From IMG/VR virus record IMGVR_UViG_3300045988_156524: a stretch of DNA of 64,000 nucleotides; one strand, 5' to 3'. Under the pieces are notes generated by a model. It had not been told where the DNA came from and searched no databases. It was given only the letters and a program-made list of their open reading frames with translations. Shown here piece after piece: positions 1 through 11,504 of the stretch. Position numbers and translations under genes: made by a program. The stretch is from a virus (taxonomy: Duplodnaviria > Heunggongvirae > Uroviricota > Caudoviricetes). Every line of letters starts with the position of its first letter. Position 1 is the stretch's first letter.

Positions 1-119
1 CTTTTCAGAAGAAAATGCTGCACCATTGCATTTCAGCCACCCCGTTGGCGGTGTGGCTGAGGGCCATGGAATAGGTACACCAACGGGCAGCGCCGAGCCT
101 TCCCCTAAACCAACGTTTT
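1..119. repeat. Direct repeat copy 1 (about 118 bp, 6 mismatches versus 440-558); carries the 5' end of a minus-strand tail-fibre cassette and ends in a cix-like site
   Basis: Read directly: 1-119 aligns base-for-base with 440-558 in the same orientation. Confidence 0.85.
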
Positions 120-129
120 TATGCCGCCC
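1..129 (-). CDS. Tail-fibre variable cassette, 5' end only (continues past window start); begins GRHKNVGLGEGSALPVG
   Basis: Minus-strand frame open from 129 down to position 1; near-identical to the start of the cassette at 441-556. Confidence 0.4.
100..125. other. cix-like crossover site for the Cin-family invertase (12-2-12 layout, core AA at 112-113)
   Basis: TTCCCCTAAACC-AA-CGTTTTTATGCC resembles hix/gix half-sites (TT....AAAACC); sits at a cassette junction. Confidence 0.55.
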
Positions 130-556
130 TTACGATGTAATTAAATGCGATATTTCGCGGCCTGACAGCAACAAAATTTATACCATCACCTACAGAGTTA
201 CTGGTGAAATTAAATCGTGAAAATCCTGGCTGATTTCCGACGATGCCATCATGAAAATTAATTGCGTGCCCTGCACCATCGCCTATATTTCCGGCACGAT
301 GAGAAAAGTTTGTAGCCTCTTGGCTGCTTAATAATGCTCGCCGATTGTCCACACCTCGTCCATCATCCCAACCTCGAATAAATTCGCCCCGTAGATCCGG
401 CAATTTATTAGTGGGGTAAACCTTTGCCAGATTTGGGTACTTTTCAGAAGAAAATGCTGCTCCGTTACATTTCAGCCACCCCGTTGGTGGTGTGGCGGAG
501 GGCCATGGAACAGGTACACCAACGGGCAGCGCCGAGCCTTCCCCTAAACCAACGTT
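119..556 (-). CDS. Promoterless tail-fibre C-terminal variable cassette (Sv-like, 145 codons) with tail-collar motif LPDLRGEFIRGWDDGRGVD
   Basis: Minus-strand frame open 556 to 122, stop 119-121; PWPSATPPTGW and LPDLRGEF motifs; no ATG at the 5' end (track ORF 119-403 starts on TTG). Confidence 0.6.
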   Translation of the reverse strand, partial: NVGLGEGSALPVGVPVPWPSATPPTGWLKCNGAAFSSEKYPNLAKVYPTNKLPDLRGEFIRGWDDGRGVDNRRALLSSQEATNFSHRAGNIGDGAGHAINFHDGIVGNQPGFSRFNFTSNSVGDGINFVAVRPRNIAFNYIVRAA

Positions 557-558
557 TT
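440..558. repeat. Direct repeat copy 2 (partner of 1-119)
   Basis: Read directly; about 95% identical to copy 1. Confidence 0.85.
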
Positions 559-564
559 AGTCTT
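539..564. other. cix-like crossover site immediately upstream of cin (core AA at 551-552)
   Basis: TTCCCCTAAACC-AA-CGTTTTAGTCTT; left half identical to site at 100-125, right half differs. Confidence 0.55.
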
Positions 565-618
565 AATCCCTACCTATACCAACGATGTATTTTTAACTAA
601 ACAAAGAGGTTGTTTTTC

Positions 619-1191
619 ATGCAAATTGGCTACATTCGTGTGTCAACAAATGACCAAAACACAGATTTACAAAGAAATGCACTGAACTGCGCAGGATGTG
701 AACTGATTTTTGAAGATAAAATAAGCGGAACAAAGTCAGCCAGACCAGGCTTGAAAAAGCTGCTCAGAACGTTATCAGAAGGAGATACGCTGGTTGTCTG
801 GAAGCTGGATAGGCTTGGCAGAAGTATGAAACACCTTATCACGCTTATAGAGGAGTTGCGGGAAAAAGGTGTTAATTTCCGTAGTCTGACAGACAGTATT
901 GACACATCAACACCCATGGGGCGTTTCTTTTTTCATGTCATGGGTGCTTTAGCAGAAATGGAACGTGAATTAATTGTTGAGAGAACACTGGCCGGACTGG
1001 CAGCTGCACGCGAACAGGGACGCATTGGCGGACGTCGCCCGAAGTTGACAAAAGAACAACATGAGCAAATAGCGAGGTTGATCGAAAATGGCTACAGCAG
1101 GAAACAGTTGGCAATTATTTACGATATCGGTGTATCGACGATTTATCGTTATCATCCTGTAGAGAAGCGCCAAACTCAATCTGAGCTGTAA
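619..1191 (+). CDS. cin: Serine recombinase, DNA invertase of the Hin/Gin/Cin family (190 aa)
   Basis: MQIGYIRVSTNDQNTDLQ...VVWKLDRLGRS resolvase/invertase signature with catalytic Ser; ATG 619 preceded by AGAGG; next to tail-fibre cassettes. Confidence 0.9.
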   Translation: MQIGYIRVSTNDQNTDLQRNALNCAGCELIFEDKISGTKSARPGLKKLLRTLSEGDTLVVWKLDRLGRSMKHLITLIEELREKGVNFRSLTDSIDTSTPMGRFFFHVMGALAEMERELIVERTLAGLAAAREQGRIGGRRPKLTKEQHEQIARLIENGYSRKQLAIIYDIGVSTIYRYHPVEKRQTQSEL

Positions 1192-1626
1192 TTCTAATGC
1201 CGCGTCGGTGTAATTTATCTTGATAGAATAGGTACATTTATCGCGCGGCACATCAATTCGATGTATCTAGCGCCTGCTGACCGCTAATGAAAACTGTTCT
1301 CGAAATGTTGTCCCTAGTCCGAGACTAGGGTATCACCTCTGGAAAGCATACGCAGAACCTTTTTTAACCCAGGGTGCCCAGCTTTTTTGCTGCTCGCCTT
1401 ATTCGCAAAAATTAGCTCACATCCTGCGCTTTCAAGTGCTTTTCACTGCATAGCTGTGTTTTGTTCATTTGTCTATATGCGTACATAGCCTATTAGCATA
1501 TTTTCTGCCCACTATCGTTATTTATTGCAAGCTACAGGTTTTAATTAACAAAACCAGTGTGTGTGGAAATCACAAAGTGCATACCGTTCTCAAATGTTGT
1601 TCAACTTACTGTTGTATAGGTAAAAA

Positions 1627-1890
1627 ATGACATTTTATGTACATATCGTGATGTTATCCCTTCTTGGTGGGGTGTATTCGTATTTGAGTGGGCTATGTGA
1701 AAACCGTTACGAGTCTTCATGCAAGAAATTGCTGGCCGAATGTATTTCCGCCGTACTTGCTGGCTTTATTGGCATGTATCTCGCGGAATATAAGGACATG
1801 AATGAAAGCCTTCAGAGCTGCATGGTTCTTATTTTCAGCGCCAATAGCAGGCTTATTATTGAAGGTTCCAAAAGTCGGTTGAATAGGTAA
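1627..1890 (+). CDS. Small membrane protein (87 aa), possible lysis accessory
   Basis: ATG ORF with two hydrophobic segments upstream of the holin-like gene; weak RBS. Confidence 0.3.
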   Translation: MTFYVHIVMLSLLGGVYSYLSGLCENRYESSCKKLLAECISAVLAGFIGMYLAEYKDMNESLQSCMVLIFSANSRLIIEGSKSRLNR

Positions 1891-1964
1891 GTCTCTTATG
1901 CAACATAACCGGTTGAGAAGTTACTTTGCATACCATTACCTCCTGACAACGTAGGAGGGAACTT

Positions 1965-2294
1965 GTGCTTGACACACAGGAATTAGCTCCAGTTGCTATT
2001 GCGCTCCTGCTTTCAGTAATTGGTGGGATAGGCACGTTCCTGATGGATGTCCGAGACGGTCGCCAGTCTGGCAATTTGTTGGGATTGGTTACGGAGATCT
2101 TTGTTGCAGTGACAGCTGGCGCGGTGGCGTACCTATTGGGGCAACACGAGGGCTGGGAGTTATCAATTACGTACTTAATGGTAACGATAGCCAGCAATAA
2201 CGGTCATGAGGTGATTTCAGGGATGAAACGAGTGAATATCGATAGCATTCTGAATGTTCTTACAAGTTTGGTGAAAAAGGGAGGCGGGAAATGA
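1965..2294 (+). CDS. lydA: Holin-like protein, 3 predicted TM segments (109 aa)
   Basis: GTG start after AGGAGGGA; hydrophobic segments LAPVAIALLLSVIGGIGTFL and LLGLVTEIFVAVTAGAVAYLL; position matches P1 lydA by synteny (from memory). Confidence 0.5.
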   Translation: MLDTQELAPVAIALLLSVIGGIGTFLMDVRDGRQSGNLLGLVTEIFVAVTAGAVAYLLGQHEGWELSITYLMVTIASNNGHEVISGMKRVNIDSILNVLTSLVKKGGGK

Positions 2295-2734
2295 TTGGCT
2301 GGGGTGTATGCGTTCTTGCGTTAGCCTTAGCCGATCGCTATTTGCTAAAACGCAAGGACATCACGCATTTAGAACTTGGTGATGTGGAAATTAAACCGGG
2401 TTTCATCCGGGTGCCGTTCAAATACCGGTCTAAATTCCCGTTTTTGCGCGGCGCAACGGTCAGATATTGGATCCGCGATGTTCAGAAGCCGACGACAGTG
2501 ATTGAAGGCGAACAACGTTGTTTGACGTCGGCTGAACAGGGCGAAAACAGTGAATGGTTGTACATACCCACTGAATATATGGGTAAAGGAGAGCGACTGT
2601 GGCATTTCAACGTCATGGTTACGCATGGCGACTCGTTCATTAACCCGTTGTATCGGATTTTCCCTGTTACTCAGCAAATCCGCAGAAGTTACGTAATAAA
2701 TCTCGCACAGGATGTGTCAGATGACGAAAAATAA
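2291..2734 (+). CDS. lydB: Antiholin-like protein (147 aa)
   Basis: ATG overlaps the holin stop; GGGAGG RBS; synteny with P1 lydA-lydB (from memory). Confidence 0.45.
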   Translation: MIGWGVCVLALALADRYLLKRKDITHLELGDVEIKPGFIRVPFKYRSKFPFLRGATVRYWIRDVQKPTTVIEGEQRCLTSAEQGENSEWLYIPTEYMGKGERLWHFNVMVTHGDSFINPLYRIFPVTQQIRRSYVINLAQDVSDDEK

Positions 2735-3323
2735 GTATGCAACGGTCGATTTTGACCAGGTTAATGAAAAGGGGCTGAAATCCCTTATCGCGGCGATCAA
2801 TAAAACCGGTGTTACGGTAATTGAGGTTGACTCCAGCAACCGCGCAACAACGAAAGATGGCGTTAAAGTTAAAACCGCAAAGCTGGTTCTTAACGACGGA
2901 CAAATTCTTGCCATACAGGTAAACGATACTGGCGATATATCGTCTGTGAGGCTGAATGGAAAAGCTATTCCTAACGCTCAGTCGCCGGATATCAAGACGC
3001 TTGGTACCGTCATGGGGCAAGCGGCCCGCAAAAACTCCGCAAAATTCCAGAAATCACTGATCGCCAAAGCGAAACGTGTTGCCAATCCGGTAGACAAGAA
3101 ACCGGCAGTAAAATCCAACTTTCAGCGCCTGCAAGAGGCAAAACAGCGGAATGCTCAGGTGGTTGCCGCTTATAAATCAGCGCAGAACTCGGTGTCTTTC
3201 AATCAACAGCAGATCACTGATTTGCGGGCGAAGCTGGATAAGGAGACAGGCCGACTCAATAACGAAAAGGCCCGAAATGGCGAACTCAAACGCCGTCTTA
3301 AGCAACTGAAAGCAGGAAATTAA
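2712..3323 (+). CDS. hdf: DarA-related protein (203 aa)
   Basis: Shares the KNSAKFQ segment and coiled-coil tail with the next gene; synteny. Confidence 0.5.
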   Translation: MCQMTKNKYATVDFDQVNEKGLKSLIAAINKTGVTVIEVDSSNRATTKDGVKVKTAKLVLNDGQILAIQVNDTGDISSVRLNGKAIPNAQSPDIKTLGTVMGQAARKNSAKFQKSLIAKAKRVANPVDKKPAVKSNFQRLQEAKQRNAQVVAAYKSAQNSVSFNQQQITDLRAKLDKETGRLNNEKARNGELKRRLKQLKAGN

Positions 3324-3324
3324 C

Positions 3325-5244
3325 ATGGAACAGTTCAATATCAATAAAGGGGTGACGATCAAGCCTGGGCTTGACGTGCTTCCCCCGCCAGTGACTGATG
3401 ATGAATATCGCGCATTAATGGCCGGTGAGGACCGCTATCTGATGACGGAATCCAACACCCTGGAGGAAATCGAGGCTACGTTCTTCTATGACACGCCGAT
3501 CCACTGGTGTGCTACGGATTTACTGGAGGCGATTAGTTCTACTCGTTTGCAGTTACACCGGACCATGCAGGCATTTGTCCGGGCATTGAACCAGAAGCTG
3601 AATGGTACCGGAATCTCTGCGGGGAGTGATAAAACGGGGGATGTGGCCCAGAGCGGCGCGCGCGCGATCGGCGGTGCTGAAATTGGCCGGGCACGTAACG
3701 TTAACGGGCTGCCGGTCCTGCCAGCCATTATTCCGCTCAGTGATGGTCAGACTATCAGCATTCTGTTTCATAGCCCGACAGCGGAAAACCGGATCACCAA
3801 TAGCGATACGCTGGTTGCTTTCCAGTTCTTACTGAATAAAAAAGACGTTACTCACACCGTTGCTCCGATGAGTGGACGTGATATGACGCTGGCGCAGGTC
3901 ACCATGAAACTTGCCAACCTTGCAGAGAAAAACTCGGCAAAATTTCAGCGTGCGCAGAAGAAGAAAAAAGCCCTTGTTGATGAAATAACCCAACTACAGG
4001 CTGACAGTGACCAGAAAGAGGATGCCATGAGCGACCTCGTGGATCAGGTGGCAGCGGTAGAAGGGCAGAAGGTAGATCTGGAGCAGAAAATTAACGCTGT
4101 TGCATCGGAAGCGGATTCTCTTTATGAAGAGAATGAGCGTTTGCAGACGGAGATTGATCAGCTCAATCGCACTGGTGGGCGCGATACCATTGCTCCTGCG
4201 GGGATGACTGGTGGACACTCTCGCGCGATGACGGATCGCCTTGCCAGTATCAAAAATCGTATGCATATGAACGGGGAAGTGACGCTCAGTAATGGTGCAT
4301 CAATGAAGCAATTCATTGAGGACGGCGAAGGGTATATCCAGTTAACCGATTCGGATGGCAGCGTGTACATGATCAAGGCTAAATCCATACAGGGTGTGGA
4401 CATGGCAGATGCGATCGGCAAGCTGTTTAAAGCCTATAAAGCGGGTAATGTATCGGAATACCTGGTCCAACCAGAAGAACATAAACCGGAAAACGTCGAA
4501 CCTGAACCAGCGGAGGATACCGGTAGCTCTTCGCCTGAACCAGAAGTCTCTGTAGGTGCATATCGATATGCCCTGCAAATGCGTCCGGCGGCCCCTGGCG
4601 CAATACCTGAAGGTAACAAAGCAATTCTGCCGCGCCCTGATGAAGGTGACCCGTATTATGAATATGCACGCTACGGCATTGCTACTTACGATACCCCGCT
4701 TTCTGATCAGCAAATGAGTGAGTACGACCTGAAGTTATTGCCTCGCGAGGATTCTTTCGACTTCCTGGCGAAGACACTTACTAATGGTCCGTTTGGCAAA
4801 TATGCACAAAAAGCTCTGGAGCTGGCCACCAGCTCACCAGACGAGTTCCGCGTAATGCTGAAAACTCAGTTTCAAAAAACTTTCCCCAATATTGCGTTTC
4901 CGGGGGGCGCTGGCACCGAGAAAATGGTGCAGAGCATGATCAATGCATTGCAGGCCGAAGTCGGTGAGATTACTCAGCCAGAACCTGCCCCGGCACAGCC
5001 TGATGAAACGGTTAGCGAAGCAGATGCAGAGGCTAATAAAGCCATTGAATATCTCAATAACGTGATGGATATGCAAAGCACTGACATGGCGGAGATCCGT
5101 AACGCCCGGGGTAATGTCCGGGAAGCGATTGCAGCCCTTCAGGCTGCCGGGCGTTTTGAGGAAAACGAAGAGCTGGTTAATGGCGCTGCTCGCCACTTGG
5201 CTGATCTGCTGGTAGCAATCCAGAAAGCGGGGGTAGCGGCATGA
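3325..5244 (+). CDS. darA: Head-internal antirestriction protein DarA-like (639 aa)
   Basis: ATG 3325 with AGGAAA RBS; size and operon position match P1 darA as I recall it. Confidence 0.55.
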   Translation: MEQFNINKGVTIKPGLDVLPPPVTDDEYRALMAGEDRYLMTESNTLEEIEATFFYDTPIHWCATDLLEAISSTRLQLHRTMQAFVRALNQKLNGTGISAGSDKTGDVAQSGARAIGGAEIGRARNVNGLPVLPAIIPLSDGQTISILFHSPTAENRITNSDTLVAFQFLLNKKDVTHTVAPMSGRDMTLAQVTMKLANLAEKNSAKFQRAQKKKKALVDEITQLQADSDQKEDAMSDLVDQVAAVEGQKVDLEQKINAVASEADSLYEENERLQTEIDQLNRTGGRDTIAPAGMTGGHSRAMTDRLASIKNRMHMNGEVTLSNGASMKQFIEDGEGYIQLTDSDGSVYMIKAKSIQGVDMADAIGKLFKAYKAGNVSEYLVQPEEHKPENVEPEPAEDTGSSSPEPEVSVGAYRYALQMRPAAPGAIPEGNKAILPRPDEGDPYYEYARYGIATYDTPLSDQQMSEYDLKLLPREDSFDFLAKTLTNGPFGKYAQKALELATSSPDEFRVMLKTQFQKTFPNIAFPGGAGTEKMVQSMINALQAEVGEITQPEPAPAQPDETVSEADAEANKAIEYLNNVMDMQSTDMAEIRNARGNVREAIAALQAAGRFEENEELVNGAARHLADLLVAIQKAGVAA

Positions 5245-5617: not shown

Positions 5618-8605
5618 ATGAGCTTAAGCGATCAGGTGGTAATGGCCACCAGCATAGAAACGCTGATCGAGCTGCTAAAGAACCTGCCCGGTTATGGGCG
5701 GGTTTCGTATGTGGTGACAGCGAAGGGAGACGAGGTAAAAACAGCGTTTGATATCGTCGATGCCTCAGCTCTTTTGGTATCCAATACTCTGGATGGGAAA
5801 ATTAATCCTGACTATCCCCAGGAACTTCAGCCGCGCGACCGGACCCGCGCATCCAGCCTTCTTCAGGTTAACCAGATATCCAAAGATTTGCGGCCTGCTC
5901 AGCTTACTGATTCCGGTTTATCCAGCCATGGTGCGCCGATAATTGGTGAGGACAATGCCGTTGAGTCAGGTAATGGACGGACCATGGGGATCATCAAAGC
6001 CTATCAGGACGGCAATGCGGATCGGTATCGTGAGTACCTGATTGATCATGCGACCGAATTCGGCATACGACCTGAAAAGGTTGAATCAATGACGGCTCCG
6101 GTACTGGTGCGCCGCCGGTTAACCAAGGTTGACCGCGTTCAGTTTGCCAAGGACTCAAATATTTCTGATCTTCAGGAAATGGCAGCCAGTGAAAAGGCTT
6201 TTGTTGATGCCGACAGCATAACACCGGCGATGATGGCGCTTTTTAACCCGTCAGAAAGCGGAGATCTGCTTAGCCGCAGTAATGACGCGTTTATTCGCGG
6301 ATTTATGACGCAAGTTGGTGCCACACAGGCGGCTGGCCTTGTAACGGAAGATGGGCGACCAACGCGGCAACTTGTTGACCGTATACAAAACGCGATCTTT
6401 GCCAAGGCATATAAGGATGCGCGCCTGGTAAGGATGGTTGCAGAAGAACCTGATCCGGATATGCGTAATGTTCTGACGGCGCTTAATGCGGCAGCCAATG
6501 ATTTTGTCCAGATGCAGGCTTTATCAGGAGAAGCGCACAAGCAGGCTGTGACAACTATTGTTGATGGCATTGAGACAGCGGATAGCCTCGATAAAAAGGC
6601 GCTGGCGGCATTGAAAGATGCGGTAGACCTGGTAAGGCAATCGAAGGAGTCAGGCCAGCATATTACCGATGTTATTGCTCAGGGGGATATGTTCAGCGAA
6701 ACGGCCCCGGAAGTGAAAGCACTCGCGTTGTTCATCGTCGCGAATAACCGTAGCGCGAAGCGTATGGCCACCGCCTTTAAGTTGATGGCTCAACGTATCA
6801 ATGATGAGTTACAGCACCAGGGCCAGGCGCTGGGGGATATGTTTGGCGGTGGTGATGTGTCGTTACAGGATATCCTTCGCCAGGTGTCTCAGGAACTGGA
6901 AAACGAAGGCATGCAAGGGATATCCGGCGGTCTTTTCGAGTCCGTTTCCGGCGGTAGTTACAATGGTGTTGCTCCATATACCAGTTTGCTATTACATCGG
7001 GCATCCGGCATCAAAGACATTATTCATCTGATCAGGCTGCTTTCCCGTACAGATCCCCAGGATGAACAGCTTGTACAAGTGCTTGCGCATTTTGTTCGAA
7101 TGCCTGTTGCCGACGTGAAAAAATGGTGCCGATTATTCGGTATCAGCAATTCGTTACTTCGCGGCTTGTTAAATCACGCATCCTCCCTTGGGCGCGATGG
7201 CTTTGACGAGATAGCGCAGGCGATAAAAAACGGAGATATGCCACCAGCTATTGACTGGTTTTCCATTCGCCCAACCAGGGTGAAAGCATTCCTTAGCGCG
7301 GCGCATTCGGCATCACCATTGGCAGAAATGGTTCAGAGGTTGTCGCTCATATTCACAGACCATACCGCGTTGGGTGATCTGACTCTGGACGAGATGAAAG
7401 AAGCCTCCATTCAGTGGGCCGATCAACAAAATGAGGTTAACTATGACTTCTTGCCAGCATTCAGGAAGGCCGTTAGTAAAGCTGATGATGCCCGTGGAAT
7501 TCTGAGGGCATTTAAGGCATTGCAAAGTCAGGTTAATAAACATGTCGGTGATATCGATGGGGTAACGGCGGAAGGCAGGGATATCCTTAAAGAGCACGGC
7601 ATAACGCCAGAGTTTATTGATGAGATCAGGACTGATATGCAGCGTGAGGTCGTATCGTCCCTGCAAATCGTAGCCAGAGCGTTGGCGGATGCTAATCCGA
7701 AGAGTGCGGCCATTGTTAACCGTGTTATTGGTGATATTGAAGCATCGGAGGGCATGGGGGCGCTGAAACTCTTCCTTTCGCGAGCGTTTAATCCTAACGG
7801 CAATATTCTCCCCGGCATTATTGGTGAGGCTAAAAAGTATGTCAGCGAAGAAGAACTTGAGCATCTTGACCAACTACTTAAGCGATTCTCATATAACCCG
7901 CAGACACGCTGGCAAATGAATCAGCAAAGTATGGGTTCGGTCCACGAGAAAGTGTTATCTGCCATGAACAGTGCGATCGCCAACTCATCCGTATCTGAAG
8001 AAAAAGCTCTTGAGTGGGCCGACTCTTTTATCACGGAAGAAGTGGAAGAAGCCCGCGCTGGACAGAATGGTGGGATAGACCTGCGCAAGGAACTTGCTGA
8101 TATTTATCGCCTGACCGGCGGTAAAATTTCGACCTTATCAAAGGTGGTTCACCACCAGGGAAGGGCATATGCAAATATTAATGGTGTTGTTGCTGTCAAT
8201 TTGAACGATGAAAATGCAAGTGCACTGTGGCACGAGCTGGGTCATCATCTTGAGTACAGTAACCCTGGTTTGTTAGAGAAAGCCCGGTCATTCCTGAAGG
8301 CCAATGTTGAAGGGGATAAGCCATCTTTCGTTAATATCGGTGGGCGTGGCAAGCCTGAATGGTGCTTCAGATCTCGATTGAGTAATATTTATATGGCGAA
8401 GGTATACCCGCCAGCCTCAGTAAGTAACACCGGGAAAATTCGGCAGAAATCACCGACTATTTCCAAAACGTCAGCAACGGAAGTATTCTCTATGGCTCTT
8501 CAGTTGTATCATGACAAAGAGGCCGCTGCCGCATCACTGATGAATGGTGACGGATTGCTGGAACTGTTATTAGGTGTGGCAAAGGAGCTAAATAATGCAG
8601 ATTAA
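5618..8605 (+). CDS. ddrB: Large dar-operon protein (995 aa) with an HELGHH zinc-metallopeptidase-like motif
   Basis: ATG 5618; HExxH motif (WHELGHHLEY) near C-terminus; synteny. Confidence 0.5.
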   Translation: MSLSDQVVMATSIETLIELLKNLPGYGRVSYVVTAKGDEVKTAFDIVDASALLVSNTLDGKINPDYPQELQPRDRTRASSLLQVNQISKDLRPAQLTDSGLSSHGAPIIGEDNAVESGNGRTMGIIKAYQDGNADRYREYLIDHATEFGIRPEKVESMTAPVLVRRRLTKVDRVQFAKDSNISDLQEMAASEKAFVDADSITPAMMALFNPSESGDLLSRSNDAFIRGFMTQVGATQAAGLVTEDGRPTRQLVDRIQNAIFAKAYKDARLVRMVAEEPDPDMRNVLTALNAAANDFVQMQALSGEAHKQAVTTIVDGIETADSLDKKALAALKDAVDLVRQSKESGQHITDVIAQGDMFSETAPEVKALALFIVANNRSAKRMATAFKLMAQRINDELQHQGQALGDMFGGGDVSLQDILRQVSQELENEGMQGISGGLFESVSGGSYNGVAPYTSLLLHRASGIKDIIHLIRLLSRTDPQDEQLVQVLAHFVRMPVADVKKWCRLFGISNSLLRGLLNHASSLGRDGFDEIAQAIKNGDMPPAIDWFSIRPTRVKAFLSAAHSASPLAEMVQRLSLIFTDHTALGDLTLDEMKEASIQWADQQNEVNYDFLPAFRKAVSKADDARGILRAFKALQSQVNKHVGDIDGVTAEGRDILKEHGITPEFIDEIRTDMQREVVSSLQIVARALADANPKSAAIVNRVIGDIEASEGMGALKLFLSRAFNPNGNILPGIIGEAKKYVSEEELEHLDQLLKRFSYNPQTRWQMNQQSMGSVHEKVLSAMNSAIANSSVSEEKALEWADSFITEEVEEARAGQNGGIDLRKELADIYRLTGGKISTLSKVVHHQGRAYANINGVVAVNLNDENASALWHELGHHLEYSNPGLLEKARSFLKANVEGDKPSFVNIGGRGKPEWCFRSRLSNIYMAKVYPPASVSNTGKIRQKSPTISKTSATEVFSMALQLYHDKEAAAASLMNGDGLLELLLGVAKELNNAD

Positions 8606-8906
8606 AATCGCAGCGCCATTAGGCGGAGATGCCATTATCGAATTTGATGATAATGAAGAAGTTTCCGGGCGTTTAAGCATTATCTCCGGTGACATTACCG
8701 AGGACATGATCGCTGAAGCCATAGCTGGGGCAAATCCCAATAGCTATATGGGATTCGTTAACACCCTTGATGCTCCCGCAAGTGATGTTCTCCGAACGCT
8801 GCATCTTTACGCTGGCTGGTTTGTTGATTGGCCAGCAGTAGATGGTGGCGATGAGGACGACGACGACGATGATTTTGGTGATCATGTAGACCAGATCGTA
8901 TATTGA
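8595..8906 (+). CDS. Acidic hypothetical protein (103 aa, poly-Asp tail)
   Basis: ATG with AAGGAG RBS, overlaps upstream stop. Confidence 0.4.
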   Translation: MQIKIAAPLGGDAIIEFDDNEEVSGRLSIISGDITEDMIAEAIAGANPNSYMGFVNTLDAPASDVLRTLHLYAGWFVDWPAVDGGDEDDDDDDFGDHVDQIVY

Positions 8907-8936
8907 AGAAATCCCGCCAATTGGCGGGATTTTTAC
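8906..8936. terminator. Bidirectional rho-independent terminator between convergent genes
   Basis: Perfect palindrome AAATCCCGCCAA/TTGGCGGGATTT flanked by T runs on both strands. Confidence 0.7.
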
Positions 8937-8937
8937 C

Positions 8938-10032
8938 TCACGAGAAACTCTTTTCTGATGTCAGCCAACAGTGCTCGTGCATATCTCTTGGTGGTTTTTC
9001 GACAAATGCCTCTTCAGCCACATCCTGCCAGGGGATTTGTTTAGCCCATTCAGTTATAGCGTTATGGTTTGCCGAGAATAACGGTATTGTATAGGCCTTC
9101 AGCCAGTCTAATGTGCTGGAGTTGTGTTTTTGAGCGTGATGTTTCGCATGGTGTTTGGCGATCACGATCGTAGGCACTACCCATTTACTACCGTCAGTCA
9201 TTGTGAAGTGCATATTACGGGGAACAGATGACTTTTCCATCAACTCCCGAATCCCGGGGAATTTCCCCAAGATCAATCGGCGATATTCATCGCTATTGCG
9301 CCCACCAAACTCTTTGGCTTTGAATTCAAGATATGCTTCAGAAACGAGAGGTGAATCCTCTGTGTTTAGAGTTATCGCCGTGAAAAAACCAGCAGGATTG
9401 TTTTTACTATGGGCCAACCGGTGATGCGAATCATAAAAGTACCCTTTCTCGCGTTCCGATGGTTTCGACAGCAACAGCAGGCGCGAGTCATAATTGGTTA
9501 AATTGCCAGTTATCACTGCATGAGCGCGATCGCTGATTTCCGCCGAGTTAATAACGATGAAAAGATCGTGCGGTCCAGTAAAACCAGCCAGAGACTCTTC
9601 GTTATTCAGACAATAGGTTATATAGACGCATCCCCATGTTTCACTGATATGCACCAACCCTTTGTCAGGGTGTATTCTGAAATAATTGCCAAGAAAAGGG
9701 TGTTTTTGGGTAACTCGCTCCCAATAACGGAACATATAGTCAATTATTGTTTTTCGACAATCGTTAATCGCAGGAGAAACAACCACTGTACGGGAACACG
9801 AATACAGTATTGTTTGCAGGATGCTAATCACTGCCACAATAGAGGTTTCCCCAATACCATGTGGTGTGGTGGCAGTGATTTTGGCTCCGGTGTTCTTTAT
9901 CGCGTTAATAATTTTTGCTTGATGAGGTGTTAACTCAATATCAAGCAACTCTTTTGCTGCCAGTTCCCAATTGTCTTTATACCGTTCTATCAGTGCTAAC
10001 CAGGCAGATTCATTCTGTATACGATTAATCAC
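8938..10032 (-). CDS. PacB-like terminase large-subunit paralog, ATPase domain only, Walker motifs degenerate (364 aa)
   Basis: Aligns with PacB at 30474-31958 (shared block LLLLSKP...[11 protein letters not shown]); Walker A GHGTGKS replaced by PHGIGETS, Walker B IIDEAS by VINSAE. Confidence 0.6.
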   Translation of the reverse strand: MINRIQNESAWLALIERYKDNWELAAKELLDIELTPHQAKIINAIKNTGAKITATTPHGIGETSIVAVISILQTILYSCSRTVVVSPAINDCRKTIIDYMFRYWERVTQKHPFLGNYFRIHPDKGLVHISETWGCVYITYCLNNEESLAGFTGPHDLFIVINSAEISDRAHAVITGNLTNYDSRLLLLSKPSEREKGYFYDSHHRLAHSKNNPAGFFTAITLNTEDSPLVSEAYLEFKAKEFGGRNSDEYRRLILGKFPGIRELMEKSSVPRNMHFTMTDGSKWVVPTIVIAKHHAKHHAQKHNSSTLDWLKAYTIPLFSANHNAITEWAKQIPWQDVAEEAFVEKPPRDMHEHCWLTSEKSFS

Positions 10033-10813
10033 TTTCCACCTCTTCCGTGGTGTTTTCTTGCAGTTCTGTTAATGCAGCACGACATAGGTTCCGGGCATTG
10101 GCTATAGCCACACTTTTGACTTCATCCGTCATCGTGCAGGTAATGTACTGATCGAGTTCTTCAGCGCGGATGATGCTTTTGCCAATCAGAAACTGTATTT
10201 GCCATAGCAGATCGGCATCCATAATCAGAATTTCTGCCGGGCCTTCAGGGCCAGCCGGGAAGGAAACATAAGACTGTTTGCCCAGGCCGACAACTCGACA
10301 ACTTGCTTCAAGAATTGCGCGCTTGAGGTCTGACTTTATAACGGAAACAGGTTGATTTTCACCAGTGATTACGCCGTTGACATGGAAAGGCATGTAGCTT
10401 GAAATACGCTCTACTTTCCACACGCCAGCAAGCGATCCTTCATGCAGCACAATGGGGGTAACCGCGAGTTTCATCTCACCATATAACTGCTGGCAGATAG
10501 CTGGATTGCTGAATACATCTAAAGGCTCACATTCAAACAGCGGCGCAATCTGCATGAGGTCCATCATGGTCATCCCTGGGGTACGAGCAGTAATGAATTT
10601 GCGCATACCAGTATCCATTGCGCTCCAGATTGCTACACCATGCTTTTTGCTCACTTCTTCAGTAAAGCCAAGGTGGCACATGATGGTTTTTTCGATAGCC
10701 AGATCAGAGATAGAAACCTTTTCGCCAGGTACTCCATCATTATTGATGGTCACTTCGACACTCTGGCCATTACGTAGGCGGTATTGAATGGTTTTAGTAT
10801 TTTGTGCTGTCAT
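10025..10813 (-). CDS. Hypothetical protein (262 aa from ATG at 10813)
   Basis: Long ORF co-directional with the PacB paralog; start uncertain. Confidence 0.4.
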   Translation of the reverse strand: MTAQNTKTIQYRLRNGQSVEVTINNDGVPGEKVSISDLAIEKTIMCHLGFTEEVSKKHGVAIWSAMDTGMRKFITARTPGMTMMDLMQIAPLFECEPLDVFSNPAICQQLYGEMKLAVTPIVLHEGSLAGVWKVERISSYMPFHVNGVITGENQPVSVIKSDLKRAILEASCRVVGLGKQSYVSFPAGPEGPAEILIMDADLLWQIQFLIGKSIIRAEELDQYITCTMTDEVKSVAIANARNLCRAALTELQENTTEEVESD

Positions 10814-11015
10814 AGTCTTTTCTCTGCTTAAAAACTGATGTATTGCGTCTTCAGGTGGGTTAGGAATGTTTTCCCACCAGCGAAAGCAATATCTCGTGGT
10901 GTTCTGTTCGTTAAAAACGCGTGCCATTGCCAACTTTGGCGTTTTTTAGCGAGTTCGTGCTTTTGTTGGCGTTTGGACCACCGCTTTTCTTTCAGTCGTT
11001 TTTTACTCATAAACT

Positions 11016-11504
11016 CTAAAACGGAATATCGTCTTCAAAGTCCATTGGAGGTTCGTTATTGGCGCTGCTCTGAGGTTTGCCGCCACCGCTGTATTGCTGG
11101 TGGTTTTGAGGTTGGTTTGACTGCCCCCTGCCATTTGAGGACTGTGAATCGTCGCGGCGAGTGCCGATCATTTGCATGGTGCCGCCCTGGCTGACGATAA
11201 TTTCCGTCGTGTAACGTTCTACACCGGCGTCATCAGTCCACTTACGGGTTTTAAGTTTCCCTTCGATGTAGACCTGAGAACCTTTTCGTAAATACTCACT
11301 CGCAATTTCAGCAAGTTTTCCGAACAAAACGACTTTATGCCATTCTGTTTGCTCTTTCTGTTGGCCCGTTTGCTTATCGCGCCATGATTCATTCGTTGCG
11401 ATGCTGAGTCTTCCGACTGCGCCGCCATTTGGTATATACCTGATCTCCGGGTCTTGCCCCAGGGTACCAATCAGGATGACTTTGTTTACACCGCGTTGTG
11501 CCAC
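11016..11504 (-). CDS. ssb: Single-stranded DNA-binding protein
   Basis: [21 protein letters not shown]-fold N-terminus, Gly/Gln-rich linker, acidic DDIPF tail; GTG start. Confidence 0.9.

Follow-up and report, generated by a model that had tools for sequence, protein, structure and literature searches.

The left end of the 64,000-nucleotide stretch of viral DNA analyzed here (the window) carries two copies of a tail-fibre gene fragment, each ending in a short sequence that resembles the crossover sites of phage DNA invertases, and it continues into an invertase gene. The locus therefore raises the question of whether we are looking at part of a genetic switch and, if so, of which kind. Our answer is that window 1-1191 is, with a probability of about 90%, the invertase-proximal end of a p15B-type "Min" multiple-inversion system on a P1-like phage-plasmid. 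The Min inversion region as such is already known, having first been described in plasmid p15B around 1990; what we regard as mildly new are arrays of 9 to 11 sites in relatives, the presence of a single assembly gene per array, and a dead cin gene with a second enhancer-like copy.

RESULTS

Crossover sites and silent tail-fibre cassettes

The segments at 1-119 and 440-558 are direct repeats, 439 bp apart and 95% identical. Each repeat ends in the 20-mer TTCCCCTAAACCAACGTTTT (i.e., TTCCCCTAAACC-AA-CGTTTT), which is found at 100-119 and 539-558 only in the whole 64 kb, against an expectation of 0.00 from shuffled sequences. At these ends lie two 26-bp crossover (mix/cix-like) sites, both on the plus strand: one at 100-125 (TTCCCCTAAACC-AA-CGTTTTTATGCC, with its central dinucleotide at 112-113) and an invertase-proximal one at 539-564 (TTCCCCTAAACC-AA-CGTTTTAGTCTT, central dinucleotide 551-552). 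They have the 12-2-12 form of the Hin family, with symmetric inner halves (AAACC and CGTTT). The first-pass annotation had described left halves that are identical and right halves that differ, and this can be read directly at 100-125 and 539-564, where the right halves share CGTTTT and then diverge. It had also proposed a comparison with the known consensus, and here the left half TTCCCCTAAACC agrees with that of P1 cixL and cixR and of the e14 pix site. Of its description of two ca. 118-bp direct repeats with 26-bp cix-like ends, the repeats and the sites stand; the length of 118 bp is an artifact of the window edge, the conserved 5′ part of a cassette being about 261 nt long in the closest relative. 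Position 1 of the window falls inside this conserved part. Assemblers tend to break contigs at such heterogeneous, repeated inversion regions, and the source record may have been cut or linearized at this point.

On the minus strand, each repeat encodes the start of a tail-fibre variable cassette, as the annotation had it; the frames are open, and the cassette that is complete has a phage tail Collar domain (Pfam, E = 1e-14). This cassette, which we call A, occupies 119-556 on the minus strand and consists of 145 codons (556→122) followed by TAA at 121-119. It reads NVGLGEGSALPVGVPVPWPSATPPTGWLKCNG ... RPRNIAFNYIVRAA and has its variable tip between a conserved N-terminal part, which holds the Collar domain, and a conserved C terminus ending in RPRNIAFNYIVRAA. 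Its stop codon falls within the neighboring site, so that the right half of site 100-125 contains the stop codon of the upstream cassette. The second cassette is represented by its 5′ end (1-119, minus strand), whose first ca. 39 codons encode KNVGLGEGSALPVGVPIPWPSATPPTGWLKCNGAAFSSEK, and continues to the left of the window. Two different cassette types in related plasmids begin with 112 nt that are 100% identical to the start of this cassette, which may therefore belong to either type.

Both visible cassettes appear to be silent, in agreement with the earlier claim. They have no start codons of their own, and a TAA directly precedes the invertase-proximal one. A promoter scan found no sigma-70-like promoter in window 1-1700, which is not decisive in itself and fits both silent cassettes and a weakly expressed invertase. 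A search of NCBIfam gave no family above cutoff for either the cassette or the invertase. The variable tip of cassette A (window 126-383) has 84 to 87% DNA identity to lambdoid side-tail-fibre genes, and this similarity points to a probable exchange of tips between phage groups. Because the variable tips resemble the ends of lambdoid side-tail fibres, an effect of the cassette tips on host range is plausible. The matches to this stretch include phages mEp213 and mEp043 and several E. coli prophage-derived phages.

Invertase gene and P1-type cin remnant

The gene at 619-1191 (plus strand) encodes a Min/Pin-like serine DNA invertase of 190 amino acids with Pfam Resolvase (2e-51) and HTH_7 (3e-15) domains. 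Its N terminus reads MQIGYIRVS(9)TNDQ, and it matches the Mu Gin structures 4m6f and 3uj3 over its full length (E = 1e-92). It is 82% identical to e14 PinE and 74% identical to P1 Cin. The ORF is intact, and its exact product is the UniRef entry Q05517_ECOLX ("DNA-invertase"), found on at least 1000 contigs. Judged from sequence, its size, domains, serine, and sites are those of the Hin/Gin/Cin/Pin/Min ("Din") serine invertases, and it is a member of this family. Transcription of the gene runs away from the invertible region.

The early part of the gene (637-713, plus strand) aligns with the recombinational enhancer annotated in P1 cin and is presumed to be a Fis-dependent enhancer. Over 643-713 the alignment is ungapped, with 59 of 71 positions (83%) identical, in a coding stretch whose conservation the protein alone could explain. 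By analogy with P1, this segment would function as an enhancer and would depend on Fis.

Farther on, at 1322-1588 on the minus strand, lies what is left of a P1-type cin gene, namely, its promoter region and roughly the first 58 codons. This remnant is 89% identical to P1 31570-31832 and corresponds, according to the annotation of the P1 record, to p15B nt 7147-7408. The codon for its catalytic Ser9 has become TAG (ATG CTA ATA GGC TAT GTA CGC ATA TAG), and a second enhancer-like copy lies within it at 1406-1472. With the active Pin-like invertase gene on one side and lydC on the other, the remnant suggests that an ancestral Cin module was replaced by one of the Pin/e14 type. Window 1313-1331 is a perfect palindrome with an 8-bp stem (CCCTAGTC-CGA-GACTAGGG), located exactly where the homology with P1 cin stops; it may mark the replacement junction, or it may be a small hairpin element.

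Full layout of the array in related plasmids

The two sites of the window are both in the plus orientation, and their inverted partners, the pivot segment described below, and the constant tail-fibre gene part (Sc) lie to its left. We therefore extrapolated the architecture of the source molecule from relatives at 97 to 99.8% identity, the closest of which is plasmid p1506-2 (NZ_CP059290.1), with 99.8% identity over 1.3 kb and 99.7% over 4 kb. Coordinates in this plasmid refer to its inversion locus (L001), in which position 9001 is window position 1. The p1506-2 array has six sites over 3484 bp (6055-9539), six cassettes, and one assembly gene (Caudo_TAP). At the left end of the layout, R is followed by the constant S gene, which runs into the Sc-end site at 6055 (minus orientation), with the Sc-specific right half GGTAATCAAGAA. 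Next come the expressed cassette and a second site in minus orientation at 6527. There follows a pivot of 1581 bp, in which a rightward cassette is followed by a leftward tail-fibre assembly gene (Caudo_TAP) and a leftward cassette. Four sites in plus orientation, at 8108, 8586, 9100, and 9539, then separate three further minus-strand cassettes, and the invertase gene closes the layout. According to the annotation, partner sites, a constant S gene, and the expressed fusion were to be sought leftward of the window. In p1506-2, the closest complete relative, the partner sites and the S gene do lie there, 2.5 to 3.5 kb to the left, and the S gene is accompanied by the expressed cassette.

Cassettes share 80 to 95% identity across roughly 260 nt at their 5′ ends and roughly 50 nt at their 3′ ends. 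In 12 of 12 loci, sites to the left of the 1581-bp pivot are in minus orientation and those to its right in plus orientation, as is expected if only inverted sites recombine and do so at the central dinucleotide. Recombination between inverted sites also means that left halves move with the cassettes while right halves stay with the upstream neighbor. The Sc-type right half (GGTAAT..) is always leftmost (12/12 loci), and the right half CGTTTTAGTCTT adjoins the invertase gene in every one of the 12 relatives that are complete or nearly so; site 539-564 is thus the fixed right boundary of the invertible region. Tandem minus-strand cassettes next to the invertase gene, as seen in the window, are the normal state to the right of the pivot. 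Site number varies among the relatives from 6 to 11, with both orientations represented, and some arrays have 9, 10, or 11. We left phage record ON470615.2 out of these comparisons; it has split invertase ORFs and two recognizable sites, probably a matter of assembly quality.

The tail-fibre assembly gene (Caudo_TAP, TfaE-like; L001 7047-7658) is present in a single copy in the whole array and occupies an equivalent position in all relatives. Its product is 78% identical to e14 TfaE. Only one of the two pivot orientations places the gene on the same strand as S, and there should consequently be many isomers in which it is not transcribed from the S promoter. Its start overlaps the stop codon of one of the pivot cassettes (TAATG).

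Several features of individual loci deserve mention in their own right. The constant part of S contains 132-nt tandem repeats (Phage_fiber_2; L001 5451-5882), and the length of the S ORF varies among the loci in which Sc was compared (L001, L003, and L012), from 560 amino acids in p1506-2 to about 950 to 1000 elsewhere. In NZ_LR882977.1 (L005), a block comprising the invertase gene, lydC, lydA, lydB, and partial hdf/odaE is duplicated (6822-11277), with three extra cassettes between the copies, bringing the number of sites to 14. A genuine tandem duplication and an assembly error across the shuffling region would both account for this. In the Salmonella plasmid pS13-1 (CP047090.1, L010), mcr-1.1 and ISApl1 lie inside the pivot, beside the tail-fibre assembly gene (751-3950). 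The eight remaining sites recognized in the stretch fetched from this plasmid all have the same orientation, and the array may accordingly be locked.

These comparisons bear on one alternative, namely, that the locus is an ordinary P1 Cin/C-segment system with two cix sites and one segment, in which the repeat arose by local duplication. Such an origin would suit the P1-like backbone and a left half-site that resembles cix. However, the invertase shares only 74% identity with Cin and is encoded in the opposite direction, the cassettes are Collar-domain tips of ca. 145 to 170 amino acids rather than the 1.6-kb Sv regions of P1, the relatives have 6 to 11 sites, and the one P1-type cin gene present is a dead remnant beside an active gene of another type. 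We consider this alternative to have next to no chance of being correct. The P1 C segment was also tried as a candidate classification in its full form (a 4.2-kb segment, two inverted cix sites, Sv-U plus Sv′-U′, and cin directed towards cixL) and was rejected, the locus having a different layout. The annotation had likewise set the locus apart from the canonical one-segment system, and the identity to Cin, the direction of the invertase gene, and the multiple tandem sites in relatives uphold that distinction.

Natural isomers

Shuffling of a multiple-inversion array should leave plasmids that are identical outside the array and permuted within it, and we found two such pairs. The first comprises pCR-0005_2 and pCR-0063_2 from E. 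coli strain 405, both 96,237 bp in length. When cut at the site centers, their arrays resolve into five 100%-identical segments, in the order [1,2,3,4,5] in one and [-2,-3,-4,1,5] in the other. (An initial comparison of this pair as a single inverted block failed; cutting at the site centers resolved the order.) The second pair consists of the Klebsiella pneumoniae plasmids p160070-MCR (NZ_MG288678.1) and pMCR_SCKP-LL83 (MF510496.1), both 97,393 bp, whose flanks match at 100% over the 4.6 kb and 2.0 kb compared. Here there are eight 100%-identical segments, [1..8] versus [-8,2,-4,-7,-6,-5,3,-1]. By breadth-first search, under the rule that any interval containing the pivot may be inverted, a minimum of four inversions separates the members of each pair. 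Sites of the class found at 100-125 bound every permuted segment in both pairs.

One of these segments is directly relevant to the window. The invertase-proximal segment of p160070-MCR is 99.5% identical to window 113-551, and in pMCR_SCKP-LL83 the counterpart of the same stretch is joined in frame to Sc, with the annotated S gene ending at its stop codon. Consistent with this, a modeled junction of Sc with cassette A is in frame and, at 99% identity, corresponds to the annotated S gene of pMCR_SCKP-LL83. As the counterpart of cassette A is proximal in one twin and fused to Sc in the other, both the cassette of the window and its proximal site belong to the set that shuffles. Among less closely related plasmids, the same cassette types occur at varied positions and on both strands, and the pivot is found in both orientations.

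One might argue that this shuffling is driven not by the 26-bp sites but by RecA-dependent homologous recombination within the conserved 5′ parts of the cassettes (ca. 260 bp), which, together with the ca. 50 nt conserved at the 3′ end, offer a good substrate for exchange. Indeed, homologous exchange probably explains the mosaicism of cassette alleles between plasmids. As a motor of the rearrangements themselves, however, it seems very unlikely. Cuts placed exactly at the central dinucleotide yield 100%-identical segments in both isomer pairs. Moreover, left-half positions 4 and 7, which are polymorphic, move with the cassette while the right half stays, a behavior that confines the exchange to about 8 to 14 bp around the site center. 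We also saw no deletions between direct repeats in the twin plasmids, an outcome expected of an enhancer-dependent invertase and not of RecA.

Site-specific inversion is thus the reading that we carry forward, and the remaining concern is whether it still applies to the molecule from which the window derives. Activity in the source molecule itself we infer from its relatives, because the window stops short of the inverted partner sites and of the S gene, which are on its left. Conceivably, the array of the source molecule is a frozen relic, its left part deleted or disrupted or its sites inactive, so that the cassettes are dead spares. The window itself has two direct sites only, and disrupted arrays do occur among its relatives: the pivot of pS13-1 is broken by mcr-1/ISApl1, some records have frameshifted cassettes or invertase genes, and certain P1-like plasmids are described as having lost segments or as carrying truncated invertase genes (PMC6906374). 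Against this stand the intact invertase ORF, identical to a protein on at least 1000 contigs; the two sites, both of which match the functional site class of the relatives exactly; and the 99.5%-identical cassette, which one isomer expresses and its twin keeps next to the invertase gene. We therefore rate a relic as improbable, albeit the least improbable of the alternatives considered here.

Probable identity with the p15B Min region

The invertase Min of p15B, a plasmid of E. coli 15T-, is reported to be closest to Pin. The greater identity of our invertase to Pin (82%) than to Cin (74%) agrees with this kinship. The inversion model yields 240 configurations for six sites, which is the number reported for p15B.

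A more direct link is provided by the P1 GenBank record, which cross-references the p15B sequence (locus ECP15BG/X62121). Four P1/p15B landmarks map to the window at one offset (p15B = window + 5820), with nearly the same identities as those annotated for p15B. For the enhancer in cin, the ungapped 59/71 (83%) of the window compares with an annotated 83% (p15B nt 6463-6533). The cin promoter and 5′ end give 236/263 (89.7%, with one gap) versus 89%, lydC gives 130/154 (84%) versus 84%, and lydA gives 566/567 (99.8%) versus 99%. By these cross-references, the window appears to be collinear with X62121. [quoted passage not shown]

Genome context and distribution

Downstream of the invertase gene, the window contains homologues of lydC, lydA, lydB, hdf, darA, ddrA, and ddrB. 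This backbone is P1-like, and window 1-1191 belongs to a P1-like (Punavirus) phage-plasmid. A megablast search with the stretch returned 202 plasmid records, 131 of which cover at least 80% of it; nearly all of these plasmids are non-mobilizable, and most are from E. coli. Full-length matches (at least 80% of a 4-kb query) were present in 156 complete E. coli genomes. Well over a hundred P1-like phage-plasmids sequenced to date have near-identical copies of Min, and several of these plasmids carry mcr-1. Toward its other end, the window has four tRNA genes, all on the minus strand: Met(CAT) at 60233-60308 and a cluster of Thr, Tyr, and Asn at 62113-62359. A related plasmid was reported to have tRNAs for Asn, Thr, and Met only (PMC5786510), and the tRNA-Tyr of the window may be an extra relative to that plasmid.

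DISCUSSION

The layout of the relatives and the behavior of the natural isomers lead us to propose the following mechanism. The constant tail-fibre gene (Sc), to the left of the window, would stop at a crossover site, with promoterless C-terminal cassettes arrayed behind it, each of which would start with the conserved left half-site and terminate at a stop codon within the right half of the site that follows. Since every cassette brings its own stop codon, one of N cassettes would be translated as the C terminus of S. The 1581-bp pivot would hold two outward-facing, opposed cassettes together with the sole tail-fibre assembly gene. The serine invertase (619-1191) is likely to cooperate with Fis and with the enhancer near the start of its own coding sequence. 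If it works as other members of its family do, an invertasome would form on the enhancer (ca. 637-713) with Fis, make a 2-bp staggered cut at AA, and exchange strands by a 180° rotation of subunits. Any two inverted sites could then recombine at the central AA, every inversion would span the pivot, and the segments would be permuted as a result. By the same family analogy, only inverted sites on one molecule would react, which would explain why the many direct repeats are not deleted. Whichever cassette is joined to Sc would become the expressed receptor-binding tip, and all others would be silent. The two cassettes of the window, lying in tandem to the right of the pivot with their 5′ ends towards the invertase gene, would be silent spares. 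Three elements of this scheme, namely, the array to the left of the window, the dependence on Fis and the enhancer, and the effect on host range, are ones that we infer.

The size of the array in the source molecule is a related matter. One possibility, which we hold only tentatively and rate as less likely than not, is that it has expanded to 9 to 11 sites, as in some relatives, which would raise the number of configurations to at least 80,640 for nine sites, compared with 240 for six. Each of these large arrays has one assembly gene, aligned with S in only half of the isomers, and retains the additional enhancer-like copy within the dead P1-type cin. If the spare enhancer proved to be functional, or if Collar-type tips proved to be chaperone independent, the known system would be extended by a modest new detail.

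There are also practical consequences. A plasmid assembly represents one arbitrary isomer of such an array, and gene calls such as "phage tail protein" in it are silent cassettes. It follows that two plasmids that are identical in other respects should not be considered evolutionarily distant because their arrays are arranged differently. In addition, the array would define the possible host range of resistance-carrying phage-plasmids.

How, then, does the locus compare with known systems? The R64/IncI shufflon (Rci, pilV) offers a functional analogy only: it, too, has several sites, overlapping segments, and one constant gene with many C termini. However, it relies on a tyrosine recombinase (Rci) and other sites (sfx), targets a pilus adhesin, and has no enhancer. 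A shufflon in the strict R64 sense is ruled out here, because a serine invertase acts on a phage tail-fibre gene. Of the description of the locus in the first-pass annotation as a Min/shufflon-type multiple-inversion switch, the Min part is supported by the collinearity with p15B, the isomers, and the relatives, while the R64-type shufflon must be dropped.

With P1 Cin and Mu Gin, the locus shares the enzyme family, a 26-bp site with left half TTCYCYNAAACC and central AA, and, judged from its relatives, the design of a constant 5′ part of S with alternative 3′ parts; the enhancer that P1 and Mu have in the invertase gene has a presumed counterpart here. P1 and Mu differ in having two sites, one segment, and two S-U sets. 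In P1, moreover, cin is read towards the segment and shares its 3′ end with cixL, which overlaps it, whereas here a P1-type cin exists as a pseudogene only. The Pin/P segment of e14, a cryptic prophage of E. coli K-12, is closer in its parts. The invertases are 82% identical, the tail-fibre assembly protein shares 78% identity with TfaE, and both loci have the same order of an opposite-strand cassette, a site, about 55 to 65 bp, and then the invertase gene pointing away; the e14 site beside pin is TTCTCCCAAACC-AA-CGTTTATGAAAA. Unlike the many-cassette array described here, e14 has a single segment with two sites and two alternative ends. The closest counterpart is p15B Min (Iida et al. 1990, Mol Microbiol 4:991; Sandmeier et al. 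1990, PNAS 87:1109; 1991, NAR 19:5831; 1992, J Bacteriol 174:3936; EMBL X62121). Nothing in the window demonstrably differs from it, although some relatives depart from it in having 9, 10, or 11 sites; a P1-related plasmid backbone is common to both, and in the closest relative of the window, so are the 3.5-kb extent of the inversion region and its six sites.
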